A stretch of DNA of 64,000 nucleotides from Polyangia bacterium (GTDB lineage Bacteria > Myxococcota_A > Polyangia > Fen-1088). The DNA is taken from positions 404-64,403 of the forward strand of contig DATJWP010000188.1 in assembly GCA_035578045.1 (NCBI GenBank), written 5' to 3'. This document shows, one piece after another, positions 618 through 21,969 of the stretch. The stretch's first letter is position 1, and every line of letters starts with the position of its first letter. The position numbers and the translations under genes were made by a program. Below the pieces are notes generated by a model that saw only the letters and a list, made by a program, of their open reading frames with translations, had not been told where the DNA came from and ran no database searches.

Positions 618-881
618 GCCCATCGCGTGAGCCCGTAACCGCATCGGCATTTTGCGATTCGACGGCCGGCCACCCGACGGCTCCAGCCTGAACCCTAGGA
701 AGACCGGACGGGACCTTCACCCGCCGTTCTTTTCCACACTGTCAAAGGACTTATTACGTACGAGTTAAATCTCCGTCAACTACGCAGAGATCTTCTGTGG
801 GCCCCTTGACCACCCCCGGTGTCAGTGATTCATTTGCATCACCGTCGCCAGATCAGAACGAGAGGGAAGGGCGGGAGGCAG

Positions 882-2279
882 ATGCTCAAGCACTACAGGC
901 TAACGATCGCGGCAACCGACCGGGTGATGGACGTGGCCCTGGTGGCGGGAATCTGGCTGGCATCCTTCTGGCTGCGGTTTCACGTGCCCCTGGTGGCGGT
1001 GACCAAAGGTTTCCCGGCTTTTTCGACGTACGCCGCCCTGACCCCGCTGGTGATCGCCATCTGGGGCCTCGTCTTCCAGGCCCACGGCGTCTACGAACCC
1101 CGGCGGTTCCTGCGTGGAAAGTCGCAGTCGGCGATGCTTCTGAGGGCGCACGCCACGGCGCTGCTCTGCTTTATCGCGCTCACCTATATTTTCAGCGAGT
1201 ACAGATATTCGCGCGGCGTCCTCGTCTACTTCGCCCTGTTTGGCGGGGTGACCCTGGTGATCGCGCGGAAGCTTGTGCGCAACGTCTTCACCCTGCTTCG
1301 CCGGCGTTCCGGCCAGCGCGGGGTCCTCCTGGTCGGCGAAGGGCCGTCCGTGGAGCTGCTGATTCGCCGGATCGATCGCTGCCCCGAGCTCGGGATCAGC
1401 GTCGTCGGCGTCCTCGTCTCCGCCGATTCGTCCGCCGAGCAGATCGGCGACAGACCGGTTGTGGGACGGTACGACGAGGTCGTGTCCGCCATCGAGCGGA
1501 CCGGGGCCGACCAGGTTCTGGTGGCACTACCAAGACAGCAATGGAGTGAGCTGGAGGGCCTCCTGGCACAGATCAGCGAGGACACCGTTGACGTCCAGAT
1601 CATTCCGGATATCCACGAGTTTGTAACGATCGGCTGTCAGGTCGAGGACTTCGACGGCATGCCCGTGGTCCGTTTGAACCCTTCCCCTTTGATGGGCTGG
1701 AGCGCCTTCCTGAAGCGGACCACCGACGTCATGTTGTCCATGGTGGCGCTGATCTTCCTGGCGCCCGTCATGCTGGCGATCGCCGCGATCGTCAAGGCGA
1801 CGTCAAACGGCCCGATCATCTACGGGCAGGACCGGATGGGTCTGGATGGTCGAGTGTTCCGGATGTACAAGTTCCGCACCATGCGCCAGGACGCCGAAGC
1901 CAGCAGCGGACCGGTTTGGGCGCGACCTCGCGACGATCGCCGGACGCCGGTCGGCTCCTTCCTTCGTTCGACCAGCCTGGATGAGCTTCCGCAGTTCTGG
2001 AACGTCCTGACCGGCGACATGTCCCTGGTCGGTCCGCGACCCGAACGCCCCGTGTTCGTCCAGCAGTTCCGCCGCGACATCTCGCATTACATGCTGCGCC
2101 ACAAGGTCAAAGCGGGCATCACCGGCTGGGCCCAGGTCAGCGGCTGGCGGGGCAATACGTCGCTCGATGCCCGGATCCGTTGCGACCTCGATTACATTCG
2201 GGATTGGACGTTGTTTCTCGACCTCAAGATACTCGTGCTGACGGTCTGGAAAGGATTCGTCAACAAGAACGCTTACTGA
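882..2279 (+). CDS. Polyprenyl-phosphate hexose-1-phosphate transferase (WbaP/WcaJ/EpsZ-type priming bacterial sugar transferase)
   Basis: N-terminal TM helices, and a C-terminal bacterial sugar transferase motif block (RMYKFRTM, DELPQFWNVLTGDMSLVGPRPERP). I prefer ATG 882, which follows GGGAGG, over the GTG 819 of the track. Confidence 0.85.
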   Translation: MLKHYRLTIAATDRVMDVALVAGIWLASFWLRFHVPLVAVTKGFPAFSTYAALTPLVIAIWGLVFQAHGVYEPRRFLRGKSQSAMLLRAHATALLCFIALTYIFSEYRYSRGVLVYFALFGGVTLVIARKLVRNVFTLLRRRSGQRGVLLVGEGPSVELLIRRIDRCPELGISVVGVLVSADSSAEQIGDRPVVGRYDEVVSAIERTGADQVLVALPRQQWSELEGLLAQISEDTVDVQIIPDIHEFVTIGCQVEDFDGMPVVRLNPSPLMGWSAFLKRTTDVMLSMVALIFLAPVMLAIAAIVKATSNGPIIYGQDRMGLDGRVFRMYKFRTMRQDAEASSGPVWARPRDDRRTPVGSFLRSTSLDELPQFWNVLTGDMSLVGPRPERPVFVQQFRRDISHYMLRHKVKAGITGWAQVSGWRGNTSLDARIRCDLDYIRDWTLFLDLKILVLTVWKGFVNKNAY

Positions 2280-2286
2280 TTATCAG

Positions 2287-2309
2287 CCATTGAGTACGCT
2301 ATTCAATGG
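2287..2309. terminator. Hairpin between convergent genes (CCATTGA-9 nt loop-TCAATGG)
   Basis: Perfect 7-bp inverted repeat immediately after the stop at 2279. There is no clear U-tract, and it overlaps the 3' end of the minus-strand ORF. Confidence 0.25.
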
Positions 2310-2958: not shown

Positions 2959-3045
2959 ATTCGGAAGTTACCACACTGAACGCCCCCCGTGTGGCTGCAT
3001 GCGCTGCGTCCGGAGCCAACCAACGGCGCTTCTCGAACTTGTCTG

Positions 3046-6000
3046 ATGGCAACGCCTTCCCTTTTTGTCTACGCTGATCCACCAATGGGTGAACAATCCC
3101 CGGTCCCCGATCGCGCGTCAACGAGCGATACGGGGGGTTATCCGTTGACTCCGATGCAAGCAGGCATGCTCTTTAGCTCGCTCGTTGCGCCTTCCGCTGG
3201 GTACGATATCGGTCAAGTTGATCTGACGCTTCGCGAACACCTGGACGCCGCCGCGCTGGCGCAGGCCTGGACGTCGGTGGCTCGGCGCCATTGGGCCCTG
3301 TCCTGCCGCGTCGTTTGGGACCGTTTCGACGAGCCGAGGCAGATTCCCGTCCCAGGTGTCTTCGTGCCCGTGGAGGTCATCGACTGCGACGGAGCCGGGC
3401 CCACGGCTATCGAGCAGCAGATCGCGCTCTTCTGCCAGCAGGATCGTTTGCGGGGATTCGATCTTGCCAAGGCTCCGCTGATGCGGGTGACCCTGTTCCA
3501 GGCGGCCGGAGCGCCAACCCGCTTCATCTGCACCTTCCACTACATCCTGATGGACGGCCAGAGCCTGCCTATGGTCCTCACGGAGGTGTTTGCGGTATAC
3601 GATCGTATCCGGCAGGGGGCAACGCCTTCTGGCGCGCCGCCAGCCGGATCGTTTGGGGAGTACGTGCAGTCGCTCGCGCGGCGCGACCGCTCCGCGGGTC
3701 ACGCTCACTTTCGTAAGCTCCTCGAGGGACGAGCGGTTCCGACGAGGCTGGCATTTGCGGAGCTGCCCGATCCGGTCACGGCCGGAGGGGCGCACGCCGT
3801 CATCACGCGTACAACGACCGAGGCGCAGTCCGATGCGATCCGGGCGCTGGCGCGGAGGACTGCGACCAGTGTCGCAGCCGTGGCCCATGCCGCGTGGGCT
3901 CTGGCTCTGTCGCGCTACGCGACCGAGACCGACGTTCTATTCGGAACGGCGTTCTCCGATCGATCCTCGGCGCTGGACGGCGGGGCAGCCTCGATGGTTG
4001 GCCTCATGATCAACGTGCTGCCGATTCGAGCGCACTGCGACGATGAGAGGACCGTGGCCCAGCTTCTATCGGAGCTGGAAGGGCAGCTCGCTTCTCTGCG
4101 CGTTCACGGCCATACGCCCCTCCGGGAGATCGGCGGTCACAACGCCGGGGTTGTGGGTCGCTACTCGCTCGAGACGCTACTGATCGTCGAGCCGGAAGAC
4201 CTTGGCTCCGCCCTCGAACGGATGGGAGGCGAGGCCTGGCGGCATCGCGCGTGCCGGCTATACGAGCAACCGATCGTACCGCTGGCCGTCAAGGTAGCCG
4301 CCGGAACACGGATTAGCGTCCAGGTCCTGTTGGACCTACGCCACTATCGCCAGACCGCGGTCGAACGGCTCGTGACGTCATTCATGCTTGCGTTGGACGA
4401 GCTAGCACGGGATGAAACCCGCGCCCTGGGAGCGGTTTCGGTGATCCCGCCGGGAGACCTGGAAACGACCCGCCGTGTCTGGAATGCGACAAACAGACGA
4501 TTCTCCGATCAACTCCTCGTCCACCAGCTGTTCGAGGCGCAGGTCGGGTCCCGTGGCCAAGCGGTGGCCGTTGAACACGAAGGAGACGCTCTCTCGTATG
4601 AACAGCTGGAGGAGCGTGCGAACCGGGTGGCCCACGCCCTGATTGCCCGCGGGGTGGGTCCCGGCGCTTACGTCGGCATCTGCCTCAGTCGGCGCCCCAG
4701 CTTGGTCGCGGCCATCCTGGGCGTGCTGAAGTCGGGCGCCGCCTACGTGCCACTCGATTCTCAATATCCCCCGGCCCGCCTCGCCGCCATGACCGAAAGC
4801 GTGCACGCCACCCTCCTCGTGACCGAGCAAAGACACGCCCACCTGTTTCCGGAGCTCCCGCAGCTCCTTTTGGATGATGACGACTCCGCCCTCCTGAAGT
4901 TCGCCGAGACCCGACCCGCGATCGAGACGACGCCCTCCGAAGTCTGTTGCGTGTTCTTCACATCTGGCAGCACAGGCACGCCGAACGGCGTGATGGTTTC
5001 GCACCGCGCGATGGTCAACACACTGGAGTGGGTGACCCGTGAGTTCTCCGTCAGGCCCGGCGATCGGCTGCTCTTCGTGACGTCTCCCTGCTTCGACCTC
5101 TCCGTCTACGACATTCTCGGCACCCTCGGTGCAGGTGGCACGGTCGTGATCGCAAACGAGGATCTCCTCCGCAGCCCTTCCGCCCTGGCGAACGCCGTCA
5201 CCGGGCGAGCAATTACGATCTGGAATTCGGCTCCCGCCGCCCTGAACCGCATCCTGCCATTTTTGGCCCCCTTGGCCGCGCCCACGCTTCGTTTGGTGCT
5301 GTCGAGCGGCGATCGGATGCCGACCACCTTGCCGGGCGCGATCCGGGCCCTGTTTCCGGCGGCCGAGATCGTGAATCTTGGTGGCGCCACCGAAGCCGCC
5401 ATCTGGTCGAACTGGTTCCGGGTGAGGGACGTCGATCTCGGCTCTCCCCGAATCCCGTACGGCTGGCCGATCCAGAACTGTCGCTACTACATTCTGGACA
5501 GGGCACTCCGTTCCGTCCCGGTCGGGGTCACCGGAGACCTCTACATCGCCGGGGTCTGCCTGGCCGAGGGGTACCTCAACAATCCCGAGCTCACGGATCG
5601 GCGTTTTCTAATCGACCCTGCGGAGCCCCACGACCGGCTCTACAGAACGGGCGACGTCGCTCGCTACCTAGAGGATGGAACGCTCGATCTGATCGGCCGC
5701 GAGGACCAGCAGATCAAGATCCGAGGGTTCCGCGTGGAGATCGGCGAGGTCGAAGCGGCCTTGGCAGGGATGCCGGGGATCACGCACGCGATCTGCGTCC
5801 CATACCAAGATTCACTGGGTGACCGGTTCCTGGTGGCGTACGTCGTGCCCGCCAATCCGGCCACCGTGAACGCGCAATCCATCAAGGAGTTTCTCGCCCG
5901 GCACCTTCCCGACTTTATGATCCCCGCGCAGATCGTTTTCCTGAAGGAACTTCCCCTCTCGTCGAACGGCAAGCTCGACAGGGCGGCCTTGCGGCGGGAC

Positions 6001-7095
6001 CTGAACCGCGACACGGACACGTTCGTCGCGCCTCGCACGGAACAGGAACGTCGGGTAGCGAACATCTGGGAGCGCCTGCTCGATTTTCGTCCGATCGGCG
6101 TCAACGACGATTTCTTCGAGCGCGGAGGCCACTCGCTCCTCGCTGTCGCCTTCGTCGCGGCGGCCCAAGCCGAGCTGAACCTGGCCATTCCCCTCGAAAG
6201 GCTGATGGAGCGCCCAACGATCGCCTCGCTATTGCGGCAACCCAGCCGTTCGGACAGAGCCGCCGACTCCAAGCGATTTCTGCTCTTCAACATGCACGGA
6301 CACCGGCCCCCGCTGGTCCTGCTCCCGGAGCTTCGCGGCCGAATTTACGTTTACCGCGATCTGCCGAAGTCCTTCGGGACGGAACAGCCGGTCTTACTGG
6401 GCCAACCCGTCGGCGGCGAACCCGAAGATTCGGACATCGAACCGACGATCGAACGGATCGCGGAGATCTACGCCGCCGAGCTGAACCGACTCGTGCCAGA
6501 GGGCCCGATCATCGTGGGCGGGTTCAGCTTCGGCACCACAGTGGCACTCGAGCTGGTGCACCGATTGCGCCAGGCCGGCCGACGGGTGCCGCTGCTCGTG
6601 AGCCTCGACGGACTGGCGCCGGGCTACCCGGCGGCTCTGCCGCTGCCGGCTCGTCTGCTCGCGCACCTGAAGTACGCGGTCGGCGCTCCTGCAGCCACAC
6701 GCCCCCTGTACATCGCCGACCGCTTGGCATCGGCACGAAAGATCCTGTATCGCGCACTGGGTCACGAACACTTGCTGTTTCCGGAGAACCTGTCGGCCCC
6801 GCCAGAAACAATCAAACGGCACATGCGGATCTATCGGCTCAACATGCGGGCGATCAGTTGCTATCGCCCGGCCTTCAAAGAGCCCGGCCCGTTCCTGCTG
6901 CTCCGAGCGGAACGGCCCGAACGCTGGGTCGGAATCGAATCCGAGGAGCCAGACCACGGCTGGCGGCAGTTCGTCACGGGCGCGATAACGATCGAGACGT
7001 TACCCGGCGAGCACCTTACAATCATGCGCCCCAGCAATCATCGTTTGGTTGCCGAGAAGATATCATCCGGAATTGACAGATTGGCCAAATTTTAA
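3046..7095 (+). CDS. Single-module nonribosomal peptide synthetase, C-A-T-TE
   Basis: C domain: YPLTPMQAGMLF, and FHYILMDGQS at 3538-3558. A domain: FFTSGSTGTPNGV, FDLSVYD, NLGGATEAAIWS, YRTGDVARY, IKIRGFRVEIGEVE, SSNGKLDR. PCP: FFERGGHSLLAV, Ser codon 6133-6135. TE: GGFSFG (Ser codon 6526-6528), LVSLDG, PGEHLTI. The start is uncertain (GTG 2989, ATG 3046 or ATG 3085). Confidence 0.9.
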   Translation: MATPSLFVYADPPMGEQSPVPDRASTSDTGGYPLTPMQAGMLFSSLVAPSAGYDIGQVDLTLREHLDAAALAQAWTSVARRHWALSCRVVWDRFDEPRQIPVPGVFVPVEVIDCDGAGPTAIEQQIALFCQQDRLRGFDLAKAPLMRVTLFQAAGAPTRFICTFHYILMDGQSLPMVLTEVFAVYDRIRQGATPSGAPPAGSFGEYVQSLARRDRSAGHAHFRKLLEGRAVPTRLAFAELPDPVTAGGAHAVITRTTTEAQSDAIRALARRTATSVAAVAHAAWALALSRYATETDVLFGTAFSDRSSALDGGAASMVGLMINVLPIRAHCDDERTVAQLLSELEGQLASLRVHGHTPLREIGGHNAGVVGRYSLETLLIVEPEDLGSALERMGGEAWRHRACRLYEQPIVPLAVKVAAGTRISVQVLLDLRHYRQTAVERLVTSFMLALDELARDETRALGAVSVIPPGDLETTRRVWNATNRRFSDQLLVHQLFEAQVGSRGQAVAVEHEGDALSYEQLEERANRVAHALIARGVGPGAYVGICLSRRPSLVAAILGVLKSGAAYVPLDSQYPPARLAAMTESVHATLLVTEQRHAHLFPELPQLLLDDDDSALLKFAETRPAIETTPSEVCCVFFTSGSTGTPNGVMVSHRAMVNTLEWVTREFSVRPGDRLLFVTSPCFDLSVYDILGTLGAGGTVVIANEDLLRSPSALANAVTGRAITIWNSAPAALNRILPFLAPLAAPTLRLVLSSGDRMPTTLPGAIRALFPAAEIVNLGGATEAAIWSNWFRVRDVDLGSPRIPYGWPIQNCRYYILDRALRSVPVGVTGDLYIAGVCLAEGYLNNPELTDRRFLIDPAEPHDRLYRTGDVARYLEDGTLDLIGREDQQIKIRGFRVEIGEVEAALAGMPGITHAICVPYQDSLGDRFLVAYVVPANPATVNAQSIKEFLARHLPDFMIPAQIVFLKELPLSSNGKLDRAALRRDLNRDTDTFVAPRTEQERRVANIWERLLDFRPIGVNDDFFERGGHSLLAVAFVAAAQAELNLAIPLERLMERPTIASLLRQPSRSDRAADSKRFLLFNMHGHRPPLVLLPELRGRIYVYRDLPKSFGTEQPVLLGQPVGGEPEDSDIEPTIERIAEIYAAELNRLVPEGPIIVGGFSFGTTVALELVHRLRQAGRRVPLLVSLDGLAPGYPAALPLPARLLAHLKYAVGAPAATRPLYIADRLASARKILYRALGHEHLLFPENLSAPPETIKRHMRIYRLNMRAISCYRPAFKEPGPFLLLRAERPERWVGIESEEPDHGWRQFVTGAITIETLPGEHLTIMRPSNHRLVAEKISSGIDRLAKF

Positions 7096-7163: not shown

Positions 7164-8192
<1,029 letters not shown>

Positions 8193-8195
8193 AGA

Positions 8196-9206
8196 ATGGC
8201 GGACAAGAAGGCCCTGATCACCGGGATCACTGGCCAGGACGGCTCGTACCTGGCAGAGCTGCTCCTTGGCAAAGGCTACGAGGTGAGCGGTATCGTGCGG
8301 CGCTCGAGCTCGTTCAACACGGAACGCCTGCAATCCCACTATCAGGATCCGCACGCGTCGAGCTACCGGCTGCGCCTCATTTACGGCGACCTCGACGACG
8401 GCGCGGCAATAGCGCGGACGATCCGCGACGTAGCGCCGGACGAGATCTACAACCTGGGCGCGCAGAGCCATGTCCGCGTCAGCTTCGACGTGCCAGAGTA
8501 TACAGTCGCCAGCGTGGCGATGGGAACGCTGCGGCTGCTCGAGGCCATTCGAGACACCGGAAAGAGCGTTCGCTTCTATCAGGCATCTTCCAGCGAAATG
8601 TTCGGATCGGCGTCTCCGCCGCAGAGCGAGACGACGCCTTTCCAGCCCCAGAGTCCCTACGCCTGCGCCAAGGTCTTTGCTCACCAGCTTTGTCAGAACT
8701 ATCGGGCCGCCTATGGCCTGTTCATCTCGTGCGGAATTCTCTTCAACCATGAATCTCCGCGGCGCGGGATTCCGTTCGTCACCCGCAAGGTCACCCGGGC
8801 CGCCGCTCGGATCAAGCACGGCCTCGATCGCAAGCTGTACCTGGGCAACCTGGACGCTCGCCGCGACTGGGGCTTTGCCGGAGACTACGTCGATGCGATG
8901 TGGCGGATGCTGCAGGCCGATCGGCCTGACGACTTCGTGATCGCCACCGGCGAGTCACACAGCGTGCGAGAGCTGCTCGACGCGGCCTTCGAAGCCTTGG
9001 GCCTCGACTGGCGCGAATACGTGGAGCTCGATCCGCGCTACCTGAGGCCGACCGAGGTCGATCACCTGGAAGGAGACGCCACCAAGGCGCGGCGGGTGCT
9101 CGGATGGGAGCCACGAGTGCGTTTCAGGGATTTGATCCGGATGATGGTTCAGGCCGACGAGGAGGACATCCGTCTTTCGCTGGCCGGGCGCGCCCCACCC
9201 GCGTAA
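8196..9206 (+). CDS. gmd: GDP-mannose 4,6-dehydratase
   Basis: [56 protein letters not shown]: the classic Gmd motif set. Confidence 0.9.
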
Positions 9207-9218
9207 CGCAGCCGCGAC

Positions 9219-10388
9219 ATGCAACGCCACAGCATCTTTCTCCAGCAACCGATTCTGCCGCCTTATCGGTTGTCGTTCGTCAAACAGCTGGCGAAGTCAC
9301 CTCTTCTGTCGACGACGGTGGCCTACGGACAGGAGCACCCGCGGTCCGCCTTGCGCAGCATCCTAAACCCAGACGGCGTGTCGGTCCGCACTTTGAGGAA
9401 TGTCTTCGTCGCGTCCGATCGGCTGATGACCGCCCAGATGGGCGCGGTGACCGCCTTCGACATCTCGCACTTCGACACCCTGATCTGCACGTTCGATCCA
9501 CGGATCGTCACCAACACACTGCTGGTGCTCAAGGCCAAGCGGCACCACGTGCCGGTCATCCTCTGGGGACACGGCATACGCCCGCGCGGTCGGTTCAAGC
9601 ACCTCTACAAGCGAGCCGCCGAGATCGCCGAGGCAGTGATCCTCTACTCGGCGAAGGGCAAACGCGAGCTGCAGGACCTGGGTGTTCCTGAAGGCAAAAT
9701 GTTCGTCGCCTGGAACTCGATCGATACGCACGTCATCGCGGGCGTGCGTGACGGTAAGCCGCTTCGCGAGCGCGACGGCATCATCTACGTGGGGCGTCTG
9801 GTTCGCGACAAGAAGATCCTGCTACTGATCAAAGGCTTCGCGCGGGCGCGTGGCTCCCTCCCGGCGGCGGCACATCTCTACATCGTCGGGTCCGGACCGA
9901 TGCGTGTGCCTGCCGAGAAGCTGGCCCGCGATCTGGGTATAGCGGCACACGTCACCTTTGCCGGCGAGACCTATCGCGAGGAAGAGGTGGCCAGCTGGAT
10001 GAATCGCTCATGGATCTCGGTCTCGCCCGGGTACATCGGGCTCAGCGTGATCCATGCCTTCGCATACGGCCTCCCGATGATCGCCGGCGATCGCGAACCA
10101 CACAGCCCCGAGGTCGAGGCCTTGCTACCCGGCAAGAATGGCGAGTTCTTTACGGCTGATGACCCGGAAGCGCTGGCCCGTTCGCTGGTATCCATTCACG
10201 CCGATCCTGCACGCTTGACCGCGATGGGTCAGGCGGCGCTCGTCACCAGCGATTTTTTCAGCGTTCGATCGATGGTCGCCGCGTTCGAGCGAGCCGTGGC
10301 TTTCGCCCATGGAGAGGGACCGCCCGATCTGGGCACCTACGGGCTCGACATCGGGCATGGCGCTCTCCACGGGGCCGCGCTGCCGTGA
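9219..10388 (+). CDS. Glycosyltransferase, GT4-like (GT-B fold)
   Basis: C-terminal half shows the GT4 pattern (FAGE...SWISVSPGYIGLSVIHAFAYGLPMIA, E-x7-E-like region). Sits in the co-oriented EPS block. Confidence 0.7.
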   Translation: MQRHSIFLQQPILPPYRLSFVKQLAKSPLLSTTVAYGQEHPRSALRSILNPDGVSVRTLRNVFVASDRLMTAQMGAVTAFDISHFDTLICTFDPRIVTNTLLVLKAKRHHVPVILWGHGIRPRGRFKHLYKRAAEIAEAVILYSAKGKRELQDLGVPEGKMFVAWNSIDTHVIAGVRDGKPLRERDGIIYVGRLVRDKKILLLIKGFARARGSLPAAAHLYIVGSGPMRVPAEKLARDLGIAAHVTFAGETYREEEVASWMNRSWISVSPGYIGLSVIHAFAYGLPMIAGDREPHSPEVEALLPGKNGEFFTADDPEALARSLVSIHADPARLTAMGQAALVTSDFFSVRSMVAAFERAVAFAHGEGPPDLGTYGLDIGHGALHGAALP

Positions 10389-11473
10389 GCGGAGAGCCGC
10401 TCCTGTGCTTGATCGGCACGTTTCCGCCGCCCGTTCACGGGCAGGCGGCCGTGAACGAGGCCGTCCGCAAGCGGGTGGCCGAGGCCGGTTCCCCACACGT
10501 GGTGATCAATCTGGCCGGCGCCTCGCTGGAGCGAGGGTGGCGAACGCGACTCAAACGCATCGGAGCGTTCGGGTCGGGATTGGCATCCTTGCTGAAGCTA
10601 GCGCTGGAGCGGCGGCGGCTCACCATCTACATGAGCGTCTCGGGCGGGTGGGGACAACTATACGAGGCCTGCTTTGCGTCGGTCGGCCGGGCGGTGGACG
10701 CGAGGATGTTCTTGCACCACCACAGCTTTGCGTATCTGGACGAGCGCCGGACGCTGACGGCGCTGCTGGCGTGGATAGCGGGGCCGGAGGCCACCCACGT
10801 GGTCCTTTGCGAGCGGATGGCGCGCCTCCTGCGGGAGCGCTATACGCCGGTGCGGCAGGTCATGGAGATCTCGAACGCTGGCCTGGTGGATCCACCCTCA
10901 GGTGAAGCGACGCCGCGCCCGGCTCTGAAGACGCTCGCCTTTCTCAGCAACGTCTCGCGAGAGAAGGGTGTGCTGCGCTTCCTCGACGTGATCGAGGCCT
11001 TGCGGCGAGAGAGACTGGGCCTTCGCGCCCGGATTGCGGGCCCTTTCCAGGACGCGGAGATCGAAAGCACCGTTCGCCAGCGCCTGGCGCGCCTCGGCGA
11101 TGGCGTGGAATACCTGGGCGCGCGCTACGGCGAAGAGAAGCGGCGCTTCTTCCTCGAAGCGGACGCGCTCCTTTATCCGTCCGACTACGTAAACGAAGCC
11201 GAGCCGCTCGTGATCTGGGAGGCCGTATCTCAAGGACTCCCGGTGGTCGCCTGGGGCCGCGGATGCATCGGTCAGATGCTGTCGGACGGCGCAGGGGCCG
11301 CCGTCCCTGTCGCCGAGGACTTTCTCCCCGACGCCGTGGGCCGCGTCAAGGAGTGGATCTCGCGGCCCGACCTGTTCACCGAGGCGTCGCGGCGAGCGGC
11401 GGAGTCGTTCGCCCACCGGCGCCGGGCCGCCGAAGCCGGCGCCGCAACCCTCATCCGGCTGTTGACATCATGA
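10385..11473 (+). CDS. Glycosyltransferase, GT4-like
   Basis: GTGA start/stop overlap with the upstream GT. C-terminal region has a GT-B type E-x7-E stretch (YPSDYVNEAEPLVIWEAVSQGLPVVA). Confidence 0.65.
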   Translation: MSGEPLLCLIGTFPPPVHGQAAVNEAVRKRVAEAGSPHVVINLAGASLERGWRTRLKRIGAFGSGLASLLKLALERRRLTIYMSVSGGWGQLYEACFASVGRAVDARMFLHHHSFAYLDERRTLTALLAWIAGPEATHVVLCERMARLLRERYTPVRQVMEISNAGLVDPPSGEATPRPALKTLAFLSNVSREKGVLRFLDVIEALRRERLGLRARIAGPFQDAEIESTVRQRLARLGDGVEYLGARYGEEKRRFFLEADALLYPSDYVNEAEPLVIWEAVSQGLPVVAWGRGCIGQMLSDGAGAAVPVAEDFLPDAVGRVKEWISRPDLFTEASRRAAESFAHRRRAAEAGAATLIRLLTS

Positions 11474-12426
11474 CGTTCGAGAGATCACCGGGGTGCGTCC
11501 TGTGCGGGGCACATGTGCAGGAGTCGTTGGACCGCGTCTTCGATGCCCGCTTCGGCGTCCCAGGTTTCTGGACAATCGGCATCTGCTCCGCATGCGGGCT
11601 TGAGCAGACGTTTCCGCTTCTCGACCTCTCCGCGCTCCGGGCCCTGTACGAGGCGCACTACAACTTTGGTGGCGAGAAAGACACGCTGTACGATCGCCTG
11701 CGCGAGCGTTTCCTGGGCTCGGCCGCCTACGCGATGTGGCTGCGTCTTGACGGAGACGTTTCGTTTCACGGCCGCCGAGGCCAGGGGCGACTTCTGGACG
11801 TTGGGTGCAACGAGGGCCGGAGTCTGCTTCGATATCGGGCCGGTGGATTCACCGCAGAAGGGGTGGAGATCAACGCGATGGCGGCGGCTCGTGCCCGGGC
11901 AGCCGGGTTCCGCGTGCACGAAGGCACCATCGAGGACTTTCGCCCCACTCAGCTCTACGATGTGGTGGTTCTGTCGAACGTGCTCGAACACGCGCTGGAT
12001 CCGCGGGACATGCTCCGCCGGGTACGAAGCGTCTTGGCGCCCGGGGGGCAGCTGTGGGTGAGCCTTCCGAACGGGCGTAGCTGGCTGCGTGCCCTCTTCG
12101 GGCGGGCTTGGATCAACTGGCACGTGCCCTTTCATATCGTTCATTTCTCGGAAGCGACCCTAGGCAAGTTACTTCGCGAAGAAGGCTTCGCGGTAGAGTC
12201 GACGAATTGCACAACGCCGGCTGTCTGGGTCTGCCAATCACTCCTGGCCGCCGTTTTTGGCCGGCCGAGCCGCCCCACATTGGCTTTGCGAAACCCGGCG
12301 CTGGTCGGGGGGGTGATGGCGGCCATTCGGGGGCTGTTCTTTCCGGTCTTGTGGGCCGGCGACGTCACCGGCCGAGGAGACTGCCTGGTGGTCACCGCGC
12401 GAAAGGACGCCCGATCGGCGGTGTAG
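11470..12426 (+). CDS. Class I SAM-dependent methyltransferase with N-terminal CxxC...CxxC zinc-ribbon
   Basis: ATGA overlap with the upstream GT. CVLCGAHV...CSACG, SAM motif I LLDVGCNEGRSL, and VVVLSNVLEH. The track ORF start at 11263 is an upstream extension overlapping the GT. Confidence 0.75.
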   Translation: MTFERSPGCVLCGAHVQESLDRVFDARFGVPGFWTIGICSACGLEQTFPLLDLSALRALYEAHYNFGGEKDTLYDRLRERFLGSAAYAMWLRLDGDVSFHGRRGQGRLLDVGCNEGRSLLRYRAGGFTAEGVEINAMAAARARAAGFRVHEGTIEDFRPTQLYDVVVLSNVLEHALDPRDMLRRVRSVLAPGGQLWVSLPNGRSWLRALFGRAWINWHVPFHIVHFSEATLGKLLREEGFAVESTNCTTPAVWVCQSLLAAVFGRPSRPTLALRNPALVGGVMAAIRGLFFPVLWAGDVTGRGDCLVVTARKDARSAV

Positions 12427-12523
12427 GTCTTCTTTGAGAAACCAACGACCCACCGCCAGGCCGGATGGCCCGTTCAGCGTGCCGGCCTGGCCGACAGCCT
12501 GTTACACGGATTGAATACCCACC

Positions 12524-13759
12524 ATGGCCGTTCGTCGGATCTTGATTGTGGCAGTCAACTACTGGCCGGAGCCAACCGGAACAGCTCCTTATACGACCGG
12601 CCTGGCCGAACACCTGGTGACGCGGGACTGGGAGGTCAAGGTCGTCACAACGATGCCCTATTACCCGACCTCGAGTGTTTTCGCCGAGTATCGGTCGGCC
12701 GCCTGGCGGAAGGAGCTTGTGAATGGGGTGCGGATCCTGCGCGGGCGACCGTATGTGCTGAACCGACAGACCGCGTTTGCACGAGCTTTGCTCGAAGCAT
12801 CCTTTCTGCTGAGCTCAGGCCCACTCATCGCCGGGGCCGCGCCGGACCTGGTGCTGGGCATCAGTCCAGGCATCAGTAGTGCTTTGCTCGCTCTGGCTGC
12901 CGCGCGCATCTACCGTGTGCCGCTAGCGCTGTGGATCCAGGATCTCCTGGGAGCCGGCGCCATACAGAGCGGGGTGCCGGGGGGCCAAACGATCGGGTCC
13001 GCAGCGACCCTCGTCGAAGGATGGATAGCTCGACAAGCCGATCGAATCGCCATCATCTCTCAGTCATTCCGTCCGTATCTGGCTGCGGCCGGTGTCTCGG
13101 CTGACAGAATCAGCCGAATCCGGAACTGGACCCACATCGGGCGCGCGACGAGGTCACGCGAAGCCGTTCGTGCCGACTTCGGCCTCGGCAGCTCCGACTG
13201 GATCTGCCTTCATGCGGGAAACATGGGCTACAAGCAGGGCCTCGAGAACATCGTGGATTGTGCCCGACTCGCCCAGTCGGTAGCGCCCGACCTCACCTTC
13301 GTCCTTTTGGGCGACGGCAACCAGCGGGCGATGCTGGAAGAACGAGGACGACATCTACCCAATTTGCGGTTCTTGCCGACCCAGAGCAATGAGCAGTTCG
13401 CCAATGCACTCGCAATGGCCGACGTTCTGCTGGTAAACCAGCGCGCGTCTGTCACGTCGATGTCTCTCCCGAGCAAGCTCACTTCTTACCTCGCGGCAGA
13501 TCGGCCCATCGTGGCCGCAGTGTCTTCCGGTGAGGTGGCGAGCCTCCTGACAGAGGTCGGCGCCGGGGCTGTCGTACCACCGGAATCGCCCGCCGCGCTA
13601 TTGGAACAACTCGTGTCACTCCGCCGCCAGCCCACCTTGGCGGCGGAAATGGCCGCTCGCGGGGCGGAATACGCCCGGACTGTCCTCTCCCCCGGCCAAA
13701 CTCTGACGGCACTCGAGCGGTTCGTCGGCGGACAGGACGATAGGGGTTCGCCGGTGTGA
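12524..13759 (+). CDS. Glycosyltransferase, WcaI-like (GT4)
   Basis: N-terminus ILIVAVNYWPEPTGTAPYTTGLAEHL is typical of WcaI-type GTs. Has a C-terminal GT-B region. Confidence 0.7.
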   Translation: MAVRRILIVAVNYWPEPTGTAPYTTGLAEHLVTRDWEVKVVTTMPYYPTSSVFAEYRSAAWRKELVNGVRILRGRPYVLNRQTAFARALLEASFLLSSGPLIAGAAPDLVLGISPGISSALLALAAARIYRVPLALWIQDLLGAGAIQSGVPGGQTIGSAATLVEGWIARQADRIAIISQSFRPYLAAAGVSADRISRIRNWTHIGRATRSREAVRADFGLGSSDWICLHAGNMGYKQGLENIVDCARLAQSVAPDLTFVLLGDGNQRAMLEERGRHLPNLRFLPTQSNEQFANALAMADVLLVNQRASVTSMSLPSKLTSYLAADRPIVAAVSSGEVASLLTEVGAGAVVPPESPAALLEQLVSLRRQPTLAAEMAARGAEYARTVLSPGQTLTALERFVGGQDDRGSPV

Positions 13760-14731: not shown

Positions 14732-15691
14732 TCACTCGCCCGGACGACCGCCCGGGTTGCGAGCGGACATCAGTCGGCTCGACCCGAGCAGCGTGGCGAG
14801 CTTCTTCCTGACCGCCTGAGCGTAGTACCTATACGAGTGAGCGACGTTCGGCAAATGCGACAACAGTGAAAGCCATCGATAGTCGCCCTCCCGGCTCAAG
14901 TCAAACAATCCGAACTGACTGATGACGAAAGGGCTCTGGTCGCCGGGGAGCCTTACCGGCGAGCGAGAGAATCGCCTCTTCTGGAGGTGGATGTAGACGT
15001 ACTCCCGCTGTAACCCATCCCCGGCATCACAAAAAAGCCGGCCATCCCTCCATACGAACAATTGACCCCACCTGTTTGGATGTCGGGTAATGTACAGAAA
15101 GGGTGACCGCGGCGAAATATCCGCAATCATCTCCGCCCTGCAAACGGAGAGATTGTTCTCTCGAAAGATCACGTCGATCCCGTTAGTCTCGTCGAAGGCG
15201 ACTGAATCGTCAGTGGAGAACGCCGCGCGGTAATCTCGCACCCCGCCTGGCAATTCATACGCTGCATTAACGACCGGGTCATTCTTGTAGAGAGTAAAGT
15301 GACCGCGTCTGAATATCTTGACGTACTTCGTGGAGCGCGCCACATCCAACACAGGCGTCAAGTCACCAAAGACCATGTCGAAATCGCAGTGCCCCCACCA
15401 GTCGCAGCCTTTGAGCTCCGGTGCAAAGATCTTTCCAAACGCAGGACGAAAATCGCAGAGCTTGTAGGGGGACCTGAGAGCGATAGGAAAGTTGAAATTG
15501 CTTTGGAAGCGCGCTGCGAGCTCTTTGAATGTCGTGGTCACAAACTGAACGTTGGCTGGCATGCCCTGAGGCGGGGTGAAATCCCCGAAGAACAGAAACT
15601 CCACGCGGCTGTTCTTGGCACAAGAGGCCAGGAAATTGACGAAGTAAGGGGGCATCCGGCCAAAATAGGCATTTATTACGATGACCCTCAT
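14732..15691 (-). CDS. DUF6625-like protein of capsule/EPS loci (putative glycosyltransferase)
   Basis: The N-terminus (VIVINAYFGRMPPYFVNFLASCAKNSRVEFLFF...PYKLCDFRPAFG...WWGHCDFDMVFGDL) matches, from memory, a family common in polysaccharide loci. This is the lowest-GC gene in the window. Confidence 0.5.
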   Translation of the reverse strand: MRVIVINAYFGRMPPYFVNFLASCAKNSRVEFLFFGDFTPPQGMPANVQFVTTTFKELAARFQSNFNFPIALRSPYKLCDFRPAFGKIFAPELKGCDWWGHCDFDMVFGDLTPVLDVARSTKYVKIFRRGHFTLYKNDPVVNAAYELPGGVRDYRAAFSTDDSVAFDETNGIDVIFRENNLSVCRAEMIADISPRSPFLYITRHPNRWGQLFVWRDGRLFCDAGDGLQREYVYIHLQKRRFSRSPVRLPGDQSPFVISQFGLFDLSREGDYRWLSLLSHLPNVAHSYRYYAQAVRKKLATLLGSSRLMSARNPGGRPGE

Positions 15692-15726
15692 TTCTTCCTC
15701 AAGCTAATTGAACACCGCGGCGGGTT

Positions 15727-16632
15727 TCACTTCTGTGGCAATACCGATGTCTGAGGCACGAAGGCCCTCACCCTGTAGAGGATCAGGGAATAGTCCTTGT
15801 TGCGCCCGTGGCTCTTGGCGCTGACTATCAGATAGAAGTGCTGTCGAGCTCCTATCCTCGGACAAGGTGCCGCCATTTTTTCTTTGCCGTCGAGCCACCA
15901 TTTGACTTCCCCTTTCTGCGCATCGACGCTCGCCGCAAATTCGTGCACCGAGGCGCGGTCGACTCGATCTCGTGAGACGTTGTTTCTATTCTGAGAGTTG
16001 CGGTGGTTGTGCGGCGGAGTTCCCGACCAGTCATGAACCGTGCCGGTGAGTCCCGGCCCAAAGCCGCCTTCGTCGATGTCCAACTCCATCCATCGCTCAA
16101 GTTCGGGCGGCAGGTCGCCGTACCGGTCAGATCGCGCGCCGTCGTGCTCGACCGGCATCATCCAGAGCGCGGGCCAATGGTCCGGGTCGTTGTCGGAAAG
16201 ACGAACCGTAAATGAGACATAGAATCCGTCTGAGCCGCTCAAGGTGGGAATGAGACCCGGCGACAGGTCGTGCCGGACGCTGGAAATATCCCCCCCCAAC
16301 TTGACTGCAAGTGCCCCGTCTACGCTCGTGTAGTGATCGTCGGAGGGAGCCTTGTAGTACCACTGGCCGCTGTAGAATGGGAACATACCGGCGCCGGTCG
16401 GTGATACTGCCGCACCGTCGGGGCATTCGTTAACGACCCGCTTTGTCAATCCGGCGGCGGTCGCCCCGGGCGGCACCGATCGATCGGCGCAATTCCCTCC
16501 AGCCGCGGCAAGACCGTGGGTGGATTTGAAAACCGCTAATAGCAATGCAACAGTCCCGCTGATCACCCGACCGGCAGCCAGCTTGCTCGGCGACTCACTC
16601 CGCAGCAGCGATGGTGACCTCGCGCCCGTCAC
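15727..16632 (-). CDS. Secreted GH16-like glycoside hydrolase (concanavalin-like fold)
   Basis: Signal peptide. WPALWMMP, and ELDIDEGG fits the GH16 E-x-D-x-x-E catalytic motif. Confidence 0.6.
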   Translation of the reverse strand: MTGARSPSLLRSESPSKLAAGRVISGTVALLLAVFKSTHGLAAAGGNCADRSVPPGATAAGLTKRVVNECPDGAAVSPTGAGMFPFYSGQWYYKAPSDDHYTSVDGALAVKLGGDISSVRHDLSPGLIPTLSGSDGFYVSFTVRLSDNDPDHWPALWMMPVEHDGARSDRYGDLPPELERWMELDIDEGGFGPGLTGTVHDWSGTPPHNHRNSQNRNNVSRDRVDRASVHEFAASVDAQKGEVKWWLDGKEKMAAPCPRIGARQHFYLIVSAKSHGRNKDYSLILYRVRAFVPQTSVLPQK

Positions 16633-16636
16633 GTCA

Positions 16637-17974
16637 TCACCGTCCCTCGAGCCCCTGGGAAGGATGCTGGTGCTGGGTCAGTGCATCATCCGAAGGGGCG
16701 AAGATCTCAAGCGCGGCGGTCCTCGGGCGATTCAGGTCGAGCAATGACATGGTCGCAAAGAGTGCCTTTTGCATCCACAGGGTGAAGCTGAACTGTGCCT
16801 CAATGAAATGAAAGACGACCAAGAGAAGCAGTAGCAGATCCAGTGAACGCATCTGGCCGTTAACCGCGGCCCGCCCGTGGAGGACCAGGCTTACAACCAG
16901 GAGAAGAAGGATCGACACACCGATTAGTCCGTTCTCAGCCGCAACCTCCAATGTCAGGTTGTGTGGGTATGGTAATGGCGAGTAAGAGGCGAAGGCCCCT
17001 GTACCGACTCCAAGCACTGCATTATGTTCAAAGAGCTCGACGGCCGTCGACTGTCCCTCCATTCGATCGGCAATGGATTGCCCGTGACTTCGTGATGTGA
17101 TGAGTGACATGTTCGTCACCAGCCGTCCGATGAACTCGGGCTTGGCCGCAGCCGGAATCGCCACCAGAAGGGCGCCCACCAGGAGCGTGCCTACCATGGC
17201 GCGGATCGTCGACAGCGTTGGCTGCCGTCCGAACCACCCCACCGACGCGAACACGAGGGTGCCAACGAACGCCAGGACGGTGCCGCGGGTGTTGCTCGCG
17301 AGGAAGACAAACGCTATCAGACCAGTGGAGAGACCGAGGGCACCGAGTCGAGGGGGTCGCCGCCGTCCCATCGCTTCCTGGATCAACCAATACACGCTGA
17401 CTATGAGAGCGGAACCGATTGAGACGCTGAAGGGAATCGGGTGGGCGCTCCCAAGAGTGAGTCGACCTGTCTCGACGGCCGGTCGAAAGAGTAGCGCTAC
17501 GAGGCCAAGGCCCATCGCCAACAGCCAGGTGACCAGCAGGAAAGCCTCGATGTTCCGGCGTGCATACTCGGGCGGGCCGCAAAGGCTCAGGCGACCGGAA
17601 AGGTAGAAACTCAACCCGAGGCAAAAGTACCTTGCTGTGATCTCGAGGCCGCGATGCAGATCGGGCGCGAGGAGCGCGCCGAAAAGTAGATCCCCGCCCA
17701 GGCCGATCAGCAAGAGATCCAGCGGGTGTATGCGAAGGTAGTGGAGCCTCCGGCGAGAGAGAATCGCCGTTATACCCAGCACGAGGATCGGAAGACCTAC
17801 CCCTACGATCGTGTCGGCGGGCGCGGTTGCAGCGGAATCGAAAACTGCCTCAGCTGTCGGCCGAGCTGTCGCACTTCGGAGGAGGTAGCCGTTGACCGCA
17901 ATTGCCAGCCCCGCGGCGGGCCGCCACACTGTACAAAGACCAGCGATCAACAGGACGCCAAACGATGCCAACAT
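16637..17974 (-). CDS. O-antigen ligase/polymerase family membrane protein (Wzy-like)
   Basis: About 10-12 TM helices with a periplasmic loop, and its position between wzc and the hydrolase. Confidence 0.7.
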   Translation of the reverse strand: MLASFGVLLIAGLCTVWRPAAGLAIAVNGYLLRSATARPTAEAVFDSAATAPADTIVGVGLPILVLGITAILSRRRLHYLRIHPLDLLLIGLGGDLLFGALLAPDLHRGLEITARYFCLGLSFYLSGRLSLCGPPEYARRNIEAFLLVTWLLAMGLGLVALLFRPAVETGRLTLGSAHPIPFSVSIGSALIVSVYWLIQEAMGRRRPPRLGALGLSTGLIAFVFLASNTRGTVLAFVGTLVFASVGWFGRQPTLSTIRAMVGTLLVGALLVAIPAAAKPEFIGRLVTNMSLITSRSHGQSIADRMEGQSTAVELFEHNAVLGVGTGAFASYSPLPYPHNLTLEVAAENGLIGVSILLLLVVSLVLHGRAAVNGQMRSLDLLLLLLVVFHFIEAQFSFTLWMQKALFATMSLLDLNRPRTAALEIFAPSDDALTQHQHPSQGLEGR

Positions 17975-17992
17975 GTCAGCGCATCGATAGCG

Positions 17993-20455
17993 TCAGGCAA
18001 CCTCGACGATCCGCGCTATCCCATCTGCGGGGCGATAACCTTTTCCGGCCGAATAGCCGTACTCCTTCGAGTGAACGTCATCGATGCCGTTGACGACCAA
18101 CCCATATTCGAGCACCGGATTTGCCAGAAACCGACGAATATGTTCCTCGGCCGCACGCCGGCGGGTGTTTTGTAGTCGAATGATCGAGACTACTCCGTCG
18201 ACATACCGCGAAAGAATTAGGGCGTCCGAAAGGAGTGGAAAGGGCGGCGAATCCACCAGAACGAAGTCGTAATTCTGTCGCGCAAATGCAATGAGATTGC
18301 CGACTTCGCGGCGAGACAGTAACTCTGCTGCTGCCTGCCCTGAGGGGCTACCCGCCGTTATCGCGTCGAAATTCCCGACGCACGTAGATACCGTGCGAAC
18401 GATGTCACTTCTACGGGGTAGGCTACTCAGCCCCACATCGGGGGATTGTTTGAATAGACGGTGGTGACTGGGCCGGTGCATATCGCCCTCTATCACCATC
18501 ACGCGCTTCCCGTCTGCCACCAACGCCACAGCCAATGAGAGCGTACACAGTGTCTTGCCGTCTCCAGGCATCGGTGACGTCATCAACAACACCTTGACGT
18601 CCCGACGATTCGCGCCCATCCGATACACACTCGCACGCAGGTGACGGAACGACTCCGCGAATGCGGGATCGCCCCCGGCAAACAAATCAAATGGCAAAGC
18701 CTGTCTTGCTCGTTCCGCCTCGAGGCCGCCGCCAGCAGTCTTGCGTTTTGGAATCGTCCCCAGCATCACGAGGTCACCGGTCTCCCTTCTGAGATCGATT
18801 TCAGTTTCAAAGGTTGCCATCACCAGCCGCTTTAAGCCGATCCAGATCACGGCAACAATCAAGCCCAGAGCGGCCGCGCCTATCAGTCGAAGGAAGAGAA
18901 GAGGCGAGTCCTCATGAAACGAAACCTGTGGCGAATCCAGGACGTGATTGCGAGACATCGTCGCGGCCTTGCCTACCGTCGCTTGCTCCTGGTGTTCGAG
19001 CAAAAACGTATACATTTTGCTGAGGACGTCGGCGTTTCGGGTCAGTTGGGCCAACTCTAGTTGGGCGGCCGGCACCGTCTTCATCTTGTCGTGGAAATGC
19101 GCGATCAGGTGGTCCAGCGAGGCCAACTGTTCTTGCGCTCGTGAACGGCGACTCGTTATGTACTTTCGGACGGAATTGGACAGTCCGTCGACTTGGGCGA
19201 GCGCCTCGCGAACCTCGGGTGCATCGTCGGTAAAGCGCTGTCTCTGCCGATCGAGGTCCTGGCGGGCCTGGGCTAAATTCGTACTCAGTCCACTGAGGAC
19301 CGGATCGGATGCTTCACCGACCAGAAACTGCTCAAGGTTAGCACCTGCCTTTTTCAGGCTGCCCGACACCTGATCGAACGCGGCGACCTGCATTTGGGCC
19401 GCCAGCCGTTGCTGCTCGTATTGTGCAGTCTGTTCGATCAGGTTAGTCGTATCGTCACCGAGAACCACGACCGCTGAATTCTGTTTGTAGTCGGCAAGTT
19501 GTTTGTCTGCGTCGTAGAGTGCCTGTTTGACGCTCTTTACCTGCTCTCCGATGAAGGTTTCCGCTTGAGTAGCTTCCTCCGTCTTCCAGGACTGCCGGCG
19601 CTCTAGATATCGGCGCATCAGGCTGTCCACAAACTGAACGGCCAGGTCGGGCGACCGAGATAGAAACTCGATCGCTGCGATGCGGACATTCTCTCCTGGA
19701 GCTGCGGAATTGGGTGACTTGGGCAGGCTGACGGCGAGCGAGTGTTTAATTTCCTCGACTACCGTCGAGGTCGGCGACACTGAAAGGGCGTAGGATGCGC
19801 CTTGCGGGGGGTCGGTCGCCCCGCTCCTGGTGATCGTGAAGGACACGACATCGCTCGAGAACGGCTGCCCGATCTGTCCTCGGCCGATGGCGGGCCCATG
19901 TTCGCCACTGACCAAGAACGCACCACCGCTGGCGAAATCCACCTGAAAGGAGCGTGCTTCTGGAATGTAGGTCGCGAGGCGAGCATCGGTCACCTGAAGC
20001 CGGGAGCCGCTCTCGAGGACCCTCGGATCACGACGAGCCCAGAGCCACCGCCAGAATCGCGGTGGATGCCAACCGACGGGGGCGATACGAGCCGTCAGCC
20101 CCGAGCGCAGAGCGGCCTCTCGGAGGGCGTCGTCACTCTGTAGGATAGCCAGTTCCGTTCCGATCTCATCAGTTTGCCCGCCAACGAAGTCAATCTGTTC
20201 CGGCAGTCCCTCTTGGGCCCCGAGATGGCGCTGGACCTCGCCGAGGTAAAGGCTGCCCTTCGCTCGGAAAGTCATCCGGCCCAAAAGGGTCAAAGCAGCC
20301 ATCGCCATCGTCGCGCCACCGATGCAGATGATCAGCAAGCGGGCGTTTCGTCGAAGCAACATCCAGAGTTCGGATAGCTCGCGCGCGCCAGGGCGGAACA
20401 TAGGGATCGCCCCCACCAGCGCTTTCCGAGAGTCGAGCGGTTCTTGCGACGTCAT
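17993..20455 (-). CDS. Polysaccharide co-polymerase with BY-kinase domain (Wzc/GumC-type, PCP-2a)
   Basis: N-terminal Wzz-like TM and coiled-coil region. C-terminal Walker A SPMPGDGKT and Walker B FVLVDSPP. Tyr-containing tail KEYGYSAGKGY. Confidence 0.85.
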   Translation of the reverse strand: MTSQEPLDSRKALVGAIPMFRPGARELSELWMLLRRNARLLIICIGGATMAMAALTLLGRMTFRAKGSLYLGEVQRHLGAQEGLPEQIDFVGGQTDEIGTELAILQSDDALREAALRSGLTARIAPVGWHPPRFWRWLWARRDPRVLESGSRLQVTDARLATYIPEARSFQVDFASGGAFLVSGEHGPAIGRGQIGQPFSSDVVSFTITRSGATDPPQGASYALSVSPTSTVVEEIKHSLAVSLPKSPNSAAPGENVRIAAIEFLSRSPDLAVQFVDSLMRRYLERRQSWKTEEATQAETFIGEQVKSVKQALYDADKQLADYKQNSAVVVLGDDTTNLIEQTAQYEQQRLAAQMQVAAFDQVSGSLKKAGANLEQFLVGEASDPVLSGLSTNLAQARQDLDRQRQRFTDDAPEVREALAQVDGLSNSVRKYITSRRSRAQEQLASLDHLIAHFHDKMKTVPAAQLELAQLTRNADVLSKMYTFLLEHQEQATVGKAATMSRNHVLDSPQVSFHEDSPLLFLRLIGAAALGLIVAVIWIGLKRLVMATFETEIDLRRETGDLVMLGTIPKRKTAGGGLEAERARQALPFDLFAGGDPAFAESFRHLRASVYRMGANRRDVKVLLMTSPMPGDGKTLCTLSLAVALVADGKRVMVIEGDMHRPSHHRLFKQSPDVGLSSLPRRSDIVRTVSTCVGNFDAITAGSPSGQAAAELLSRREVGNLIAFARQNYDFVLVDSPPFPLLSDALILSRYVDGVVSIIRLQNTRRRAAEEHIRRFLANPVLEYGLVVNGIDDVHSKEYGYSAGKGYRPADGIARIVEVA

Positions 20456-20489
20456 GGCTCAGATCCCTCTTGTTCCTGTCGGTGTGCGC

Positions 20490-21638: not shown

Positions 21639-21969
21639 CGAGGTGCGTAAAGTTTGCGTCAAGACTACGTTTCCCACAACGTCACACGCCTCATCACGTG
21701 TAGGGTAAGCTAGCAGGTTTTCTTTTGTGGAACAACGCTTCGGTTTCGCGATCGAAGCCCGCCGCGAATTGGTCTGCTCCCAGCCATTGGGACCGCCGAC
21801 GTTCGCGACCTTCGAGCTCGGCCCCGGGTCCGGCGTTGCCGAGTTGCCATAACCACGAAGGCCGAACGATCGGGTTAACTGTGGATGAACCTCGCGAGGA
21901 AAATCAGCAGCTTGTGTTTCAGCGCTCCCGACCGACGCCGTCCCGGTGGTCGTCCACCTCGCTTCGGCG

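Follow-up and report, generated by a model that had tools for sequence, protein, structure and literature searches.

Condensation (C) domains of nonribosomal peptide synthetases (NRPSs) carry the active-site motif HHxxxDG, in which the second His is needed in most cases but not in every one; its mutation sometimes leaves activity, and its role is debated (PMC11546977). Several natural members of the C family do not have this residue. Streptothricin ORF18 carries HQxxxDM and works on an amino-sugar acceptor (PMC11546977), the glycopeptide X domain has the motif HRxxxDD, the I domains are also devoid of the second His, and MxgE has HP yet is still essential; in the sugar-O-acylating, C-like enzyme MxgH the second His (H142) is essential (PMC13638107). 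In the X domain, the I domains, MxgE and ORF18 a non-His residue stands at the catalytic position of an otherwise well-folded C domain, and the same was found for an NRPS gene in a 64,000-nucleotide stretch of a Polyangia bacterium (assembly GCA_035578045.1, contig DATJWP010000188.1, positions 404 to 64,403, forward strand; hereafter the window, whose numbering is used throughout), where the residue is Tyr. The genome is a metagenome-assembled genome (MAG) of 207 contigs, 87% complete with 4% contamination. An initial annotation made from the letters of this DNA had proposed that the domain may be non-canonical, for example with a different acceptor or donor; natural C domains that lack the His and have unusual partners are documented in the cited work. 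In those four cases, however, the replacement is a conserved family trait, whereas here it occurs in one sequence whose nearest relative has His, and it looks like a one-off and probably disabling mutation, not a new kind of enzyme.

The gene encodes a single module composed of C, adenylation (A), carrier (T) and thioesterase (TE) domains. In its database version (P0002) it starts with ATG and encodes 1336 aa (3085..7095, + strand), while the same open reading frame (ORF) is open from a GTG and then encodes 1368 aa (2989..7095, +; P0001). The C domain (3136..4497, +; P0001 residues ~50-503) contains the in-frame codons cac tac atc ctg atg gac ggc (3538..3558, +), which give H-Y-I-L-M-D-G instead of the expected HHxxxDG and correspond to H184-Y185-I-L-M-D189-G190 in P0001 (H152/Y153 in P0002). 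At the catalytic second-His position stands the TAC codon of Tyr185 (3541..3543, +), which a single transition separates from CAC (His). Slightly upstream, TGC (3529..3531, +) encodes Cys181 of P0001 where 90% or more of the clade has Trp, turning WTFHH into CTFHY.

The Tyr was placed at the position of the second, catalytic His by three independent alignments and a structure model. In a phmmer search against all PDB sequences, 'tfhyilmdg' was paired gap-free with 'nhhhiildg' of McyB, and the pairing with PvdL was equivalent. A profile alignment of ~1,000-1,900 C-family domains put Tyr in the second-His column, and in a MAFFT alignment of 36 sequences the first His (H140) was invariant and the second (H141) at least 90% conserved, with the query as the sole deviant. 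The AlphaFold2 model of the C domain built on that alignment (predicted local distance difference test, pLDDT, 88.9; predicted template modelling score, pTM, 0.90) shows H-Y ending the central strand (133-140) ahead of a long helix (148-164), where the literature places HHxxxDG (PMC11546977). The placing of a different His in the catalytic column was rejected, since the three alignments agree without gaps, the secondary structure of the model fits, and any alternative His would need an indel. The HYxxxDG reading of the initial annotation was thus borne out by the profile alignment and structure model that it had proposed as checks.

By sequence and predicted fold, the C domain is assigned to the DCL type. 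Pfam divided P0001 into Condensation (50-382), AMP-binding (515-863), AMP-binding_C, PP-binding (1022-1083) and Thioesterase (1108-1359), and PF00668 scored 164.4 bits over residues 50-382 (cut-off 30.6) and 167.9 bits in a genome scan. The best matches among PDB sequences were McyB C1 (E 9e-55) and PvdL C3 (2e-42), followed by bacitracin synthetase 3 (BacC), SrfA-C and TycB1 (1e-33 to 1e-39), while LCL, starter and EntF-type domains scored only E 1e-7 to 1e-16 in phmmer. Foldseek ranked TycB1 best (9bfd_B, TMq 0.86, prob 1.00), then SrfA-C and PvdL E2-C3-A3, within a TMq range of 0.76-0.86. The DCL assignment was made because all top matches are domains that follow an epimerization (E) domain, as PvdL C3 follows E2. 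The C1 motif YPLTPMQxGMLF and the active-site Asp and Gly are common to this domain and to those of TycB1, SrfA-C, PvdL C3, McyB C1 and bacitracin synthetase 3, and the AlphaFold2 model has the two-lobed chloramphenicol acetyltransferase-like fold, its motif lying on the loop that joins the central strand to the long helix. It differs from them in having Tyr for the second His, in standing first in a lone module, and in its genomic background, since it was the only PF00668-family match in the whole 87%-complete MAG, which offered no E-domain partner to supply a D-aminoacyl or peptidyl donor.

Other subtypes agreed less well. The N-terminal position in a sole module is that of a starter C domain, but the sequence affinity is not, with E 4.5e-8 for CDA C1 versus 1e-55 for the DCL type. 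In place of the DxxxxD motif of Cy domains stands HYILMDG, though the A domain has a cysteine-type code, as the A domains paired with Cy domains usually do. The termination modules of EntF type have the same four-domain layout and size, and the NCBIfam EntF model aligned with residues 80-1211 far below its cut-off; the EntF, MxcG and SolG-type NRPS matches of NCBIfam were all sub-threshold. Unlike EntF, the module has polysaccharide genes as neighbours, no gene for an aryl-carrier or isochorismatase partner was seen in the window, and the A code is of Cys type, not Ser.

Comparison with homologues indicated that the Tyr is private to this lineage. The sole close homologue, P0003, is a 1321-aa C-A-T-TE protein, 66% identical over the C-domain query region in a word-index search and 69% identical in the MAFFT alignment. 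Its motif, WTFHHILMDGES, has the canonical HH (FHHILMDGES). The next relatives are C-A-T-TE proteins of 35-41% identity with the motif WTFHHILLDGRSF, and the second His is kept in P0003 and in all 34 other aligned clade members. An exhaustive phmmer search of 1.84 billion cluster representatives gave P0003 as the only close relative, the rest being ~30% identical. No match above 41% was found in scans of 185,579 species genomes (GTDB) and of Joint Genome Institute (JGI) metagenomes, a search of 61 related genomes yielded nothing closer, and a full-length orthologue was absent from 36 genomes of the same genus or family. Across all searches, no protein lay between 69% and 100% identity. The genes around P0003 follow the order of the window, with a Bac_transf priming transferase, the NRPS, a 389-aa GT1 and a 362-aa GT1 glycosyltransferase in succession, and GT4 and Poly_export genes close by. 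Because P0003 keeps the canonical His in the same genomic setting, the Tyr is not a family trait, and it appears to have arisen on the branch leading to this MAG by one transition, CAC to TAC. The conservation of Tyr in homologues, which had been proposed as a check, was therefore not observed, and two suggestions made for the residue, that it reflected a non-peptide partner or marked a conserved scaffold role like that of X domains, are not supported, given the HH of syntenic P0003 and the other C-A-T-TE clade members.

The scaffold idea might still be held for this lineage, with the C domain as a dedicated non-catalytic docking platform of X-domain or I-domain style to which a tailoring enzyme would dock in trans and so reach the amino acid on T. 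The second His is absent here as it is in X domains (HRxxxDD) and I domains, and the model shows a confident fold of intact appearance. Nevertheless, known scaffold domains lose the His family-wide, while here the loss is seen in one sequence only and the family as a whole has canonical HHxxxDG(R/W)S; the domain is also N-terminal, whereas scaffold domains of this kind stand between the last T and the TE. Their clusters also have a P450 or oxygenase partner, and a scan of the ORFs at 1-26.5 kb gave no oxygenase. We therefore regard a scaffold role as unlikely.

The substitution is also rare in the C superfamily at large. Among 1,835 distinct domains, taken from all homologues and loci fetched in the analysis, the second motif position was His in 1780 (97.0%), Gln in 22 and Tyr in 3 (0.16%). 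Gln was by far the commonest replacement, 15 of its cases reading HQxxxDG, while Tyr, Cys, Pro, Arg and Ala were each rare. HYxxxDG was counted once in 1,835, in the NRPS studied here, and a full-text literature search for 'HYxxxDG' returned no paper. This rarity bears on another explanation, that the Tyr-bearing domain is still competent or has been retuned, the Tyr hydroxyl positioning or activating another nucleophile (a sugar hydroxyl or amine, or a Cys thiol), so that HY would be adaptive for a non-peptide partner. Precedents for function without the second His exist in ORF18, with its amino-sugar acceptor, and in the essential MxgE, and the locus is a polysaccharide cluster. The C domain also shows no rate acceleration, and W to C and H to Y, two paired changes on one strand, might compensate for each other. 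Against it stand the HH of syntenic P0003, which has the same presumed partner, the failure of the searches and the literature to yield a second HYxxxDG, and the bulk of Tyr, a replacement for the proposed base or positioning residue that has no known functional precedent. A competent or retuned domain thus has some chance of being true, though we consider it doubtful.

A different non-His variant was seen in two metagenome contigs, L141 and L143, which are 96% identical and carry the same NRPS. Its N-terminal C domain (ORF residues 17-464) reads HCxxxDGRS, and the full ORF in L143 aligns with the window NRPS into the TE region. The retention of HCxxxDGRS in both contigs is in favor of a competent domain, and according to these two contigs a non-His variant can persist across some divergence in the broad family.

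Whether the C domain is decaying was judged from relative-rate counts, in which the changes unique to each branch were counted with 21 outgroup sequences. The C domain had 23.2 unique changes in this MAG and 21.3 in P0003 (identity between the two 69.6%), the A domain 18.3 and 15.7 (79.8%), the T domain 2.2 and 1.5 (85.9%), and the TE domain 6.4 and 5.4 (83.1%). The 4-kb ORF is free of frameshifts and stops, and the A core motifs, the T serine motif and the GxSxG of the TE (GFSFG) are all present. Where conservation in the clade reaches at least 90%, the private deviations were F76V, W149C, H153Y and R420H (P0002 numbering), whereas P0003 had two mild ones at such columns, L29I and L132S. Two of these four fall in the catalytic motif no more than five residues apart, the Trp to Cys change being four residues (12 bases) upstream of the Tyr. 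General decay is thus not seen, but private changes of a radical kind are slightly in excess, with the active site as their centre. The initial annotation had named a strain-specific mutation indicating decay as one outcome that would overturn its proposal; the lineage-specific part stands, for P0003 has HH, and the decay part is not borne out, given the intact ORF, the other motifs and the even rate of the C domain.

The same private changes help to judge whether the T at 3541 could come from a mistake in assembly or consensus, or from a minority variant of the population that MAG binning fixed, with the organism itself having HHxxxDG. The fragmented state of the MAG, its completeness and its contamination give some room for this, as does the fact that the codon is one base from His and that no second copy of the sequence exists in the collections searched. 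A single miscalled base is less likely because the second private change (W to C) is close by, 12 bases upstream and non-synonymous, and R420H is also private; moreover, the 4-kb ORF is uninterrupted, and consensus substitution errors are rare, so that one landing on this codon by chance would be improbable. We give an erroneous base very little credence.

Taken together, we lean moderately towards a real, lineage-private substitution that cripples the condensation step while A-T-TE stays functional. The A-T-TE part would be the conserved working core, in which a cysteine-like amino acid would be loaded on T and off-loaded by the TE, probably onto a glycan intermediate as the gene context suggests. 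The N-terminal head may modify the amine of the tethered amino acid, by acylation in the case of a C domain and by formylation in the case of a formyltransferase (F) domain. The replacement of His by Tyr most likely leaves this lineage with a severely weakened condensation (capping) step or with none; the aminoacyl group delivered by the module would then be uncapped, and the C domain would be retained as a structural element of the protein. Four points weigh against a crippled condensation step as told here. The C domain is not accelerated on this branch, so relaxed constraint is unsupported; some enzymes mutated at the second His remain active, and what this residue does is debated (PMC11546977); the glycan acceptor and the capping by the C domain are drawn only from gene context; and the F head of related proteins is near to ArnA, FMT and sugar N-formyltransferases, so a sugar amine might be the target instead of the tethered amino acid. 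By itself the Tyr is a single-sequence oddity and warns against inferring function from one atypical motif when the nearest homologue is normal. As to the disputed function of the second His in HHxxxDG, it has some value as a natural experiment, with HH-bearing P0003 as the counterpart.

The remaining domains of the module belong to a recurring cassette. The A domain (4531..5973, +) has the A3 motif TSGSTGTPNG and the specificity code DLYNLSLIWK, read from the profile alignment, which falls in the predominant cluster of Cys-activating signatures (PMC12283262). In its A3 (P-loop) motif at 4957-4986, Asn replaces the usual Lys of PKG, a feature common to P0003 and P0029 but not to other clade members. 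The T domain (6052..6237, +) has an intact phosphopantetheine site, GGHSL, and the TE domain (6310..7065, +) has GFSFG and a C-terminal PGEH motif, both domains being identified by Pfam and translation. The code DLY[N/D][L/M]SLIWK is common to P0002, P0003, ~12 C-A-T-TE proteins and two proteins from related genomes of the same family or genus (L172 and L173). The A-T-TE parts of these two are 45-46% identical to that of the window and have the code DLYDMSLIWK, while the head is an F domain instead of C. One is an F-A-T-TE protein of 1459 aa (L172, 3695-8074, - strand), the A-T-TE of which aligns end to end with that of the window at 46% identity with five gaps only; the other is an F-A-T-TE-GT2 protein of 1857 aa (L173, 471-6044, -). 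The best matches of this F domain were ArnA, FMT and sugar N-formyltransferases, and those at E<=1e-3 did not include LgrA. Headless A-T-TE paralogues occurred beside C-A-T-TE genes on other contigs. In the F-A-T initiation module of LgrA the F head likewise precedes A and T, and in the relatives of the A-T-TE cassette F takes the place that C has here; by this analogy, the head position shared by C and F suggests an N-capping head. Unlike LgrA, one of these relatives is fused to GT2, and the F domain of the relatives has the affinities given above.

The NRPS gene is located in what Pfam assignments identify as a Wzx/Wzy-type exopolysaccharide locus. Upstream is a priming sugar-phosphate transferase (CoA_binding_3 and Bac_transf; 819..2279, +), which also neighbours P0003 and the L172 homologue; the L172 F-A-T-TE gene lies two genes from a Bac_transf protein 52% identical to that of the window and adjoins a sigma-70 gene. 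Downstream and co-oriented are sugar genes encoding an epimerase/reductase (fcl-like), GDP-mannose 4,6-dehydratase (gmd), two GT1 proteins, a methyltransferase and a GT4 protein (7212..13759, +), followed on the opposite strand by export and polymerization genes (14732..23310, -) for a DUF6625 protein, an unassigned ORF, a Wzy-like polymerase, a Wzc-like protein (weak GNVR and ATPase matches), Wza (Poly_export) and a flippase-like protein (weak MatE match). In the initial annotation a non-peptide partner had been thought to fit the atypical motif, and the genes around the NRPS are indeed polysaccharide genes.

The 800-bp gap between the priming transferase and the NRPS (2280-3084) contains only an antisense ORF of 219 aa (2299-2958) with no Pfam match. 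It was considered as a relative of the L172 sigma factor, which has the same position, but no similarity was found. The corresponding gap on the contig of P0003 is filled by a 71-aa gene.

Carrier-dependent aminoacylation of envelope glycans is known from the D-alanylation by DltABCD and from the addition of glycine to lipid A by AlmEFG of Vibrio. In the Dlt and Alm systems, as here, an adenylation enzyme and a carrier domain are encoded in or beside glycan genes, and the MBOAT gene that follows the C-A-T-TE gene P0032 is comparable to DltB after DltA/DltC. Here, by contrast, A and T are fused to C and TE, and neither a Dlt/Alm-type MBOAT nor an AlmG-like transferase was detected by Pfam among the window ORFs scanned up to 26.5 kb. 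No published description of NRPS-type decoration of exopolysaccharides by such a cassette was found in the literature searched. We may speculate, with considerable doubt, that the genes represent an undescribed class of glycan-associated cassettes, in which a Cys-type A(DLYxxSLIWK)-T-TE core next to a priming transferase carries interchangeable heads (C, formyltransferase or none), is sometimes fused to GT2, and would attach a capped or uncapped cysteine-like residue to the repeat unit; the His to Tyr change would then be a capping switch or a retuning to a sugar nucleophile. The recurrence of Cys-type A-T-TE beside priming glycosyltransferases points to NRPS-type exopolysaccharide decoration, and it is a more promising lead than the motif.

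A polysaccharide context was considered as a general feature of the 35-40% identical C-A-T-TE clade and holds only partly: P0032 has it, P0017 and P0020 lie among NRPS paralogues, and most metagenome loci are without window-like glycan genes. The P0032 locus (L176, 10001-24035) consists of the C-A-T-TE gene, then a 112-aa ORF, MBOAT, a 416-aa ORF, GH44, Acetyltransf_6, Bac_transf, Poly_export and EpsX, in a Dlt-like arrangement. On the P0017 contig, from a metagenome that also holds P0003 (JGI sample 3300047160), two C-A-T-TE genes, two A-T-TE genes and a hexapeptide-repeat acyltransferase stand side by side.

Related enzymes were also present elsewhere in the MAG itself. On contig C187 a second glycan locus (L178, 5215-15445) contains Bac_transf, a glyoxalase/dioxygenase-fold protein, prephenate dehydrogenase, an A-T-TE protein (1036 aa), an epimerase/dehydratase, GT1 and GT2, which suggests a substituent derived from an aromatic amino acid and loaded by an NRPS-like enzyme. 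Also on contig C187 (L179, 4093-9222), a 991-aa T-TE protein, with an N-terminal region of ~620 aa for which there is no Pfam match, adjoins a GT2-GtrA (polyprenyl-phosphate glycosyltransferase-like) gene. On contig C118 (L180, 348-4079, -), a 1243-aa fusion protein combines a fatty-acyl reductase-like part (NAD_binding_4 and Sterile) with AMP-binding, PP-binding and a PlsC-type acyltransferase.

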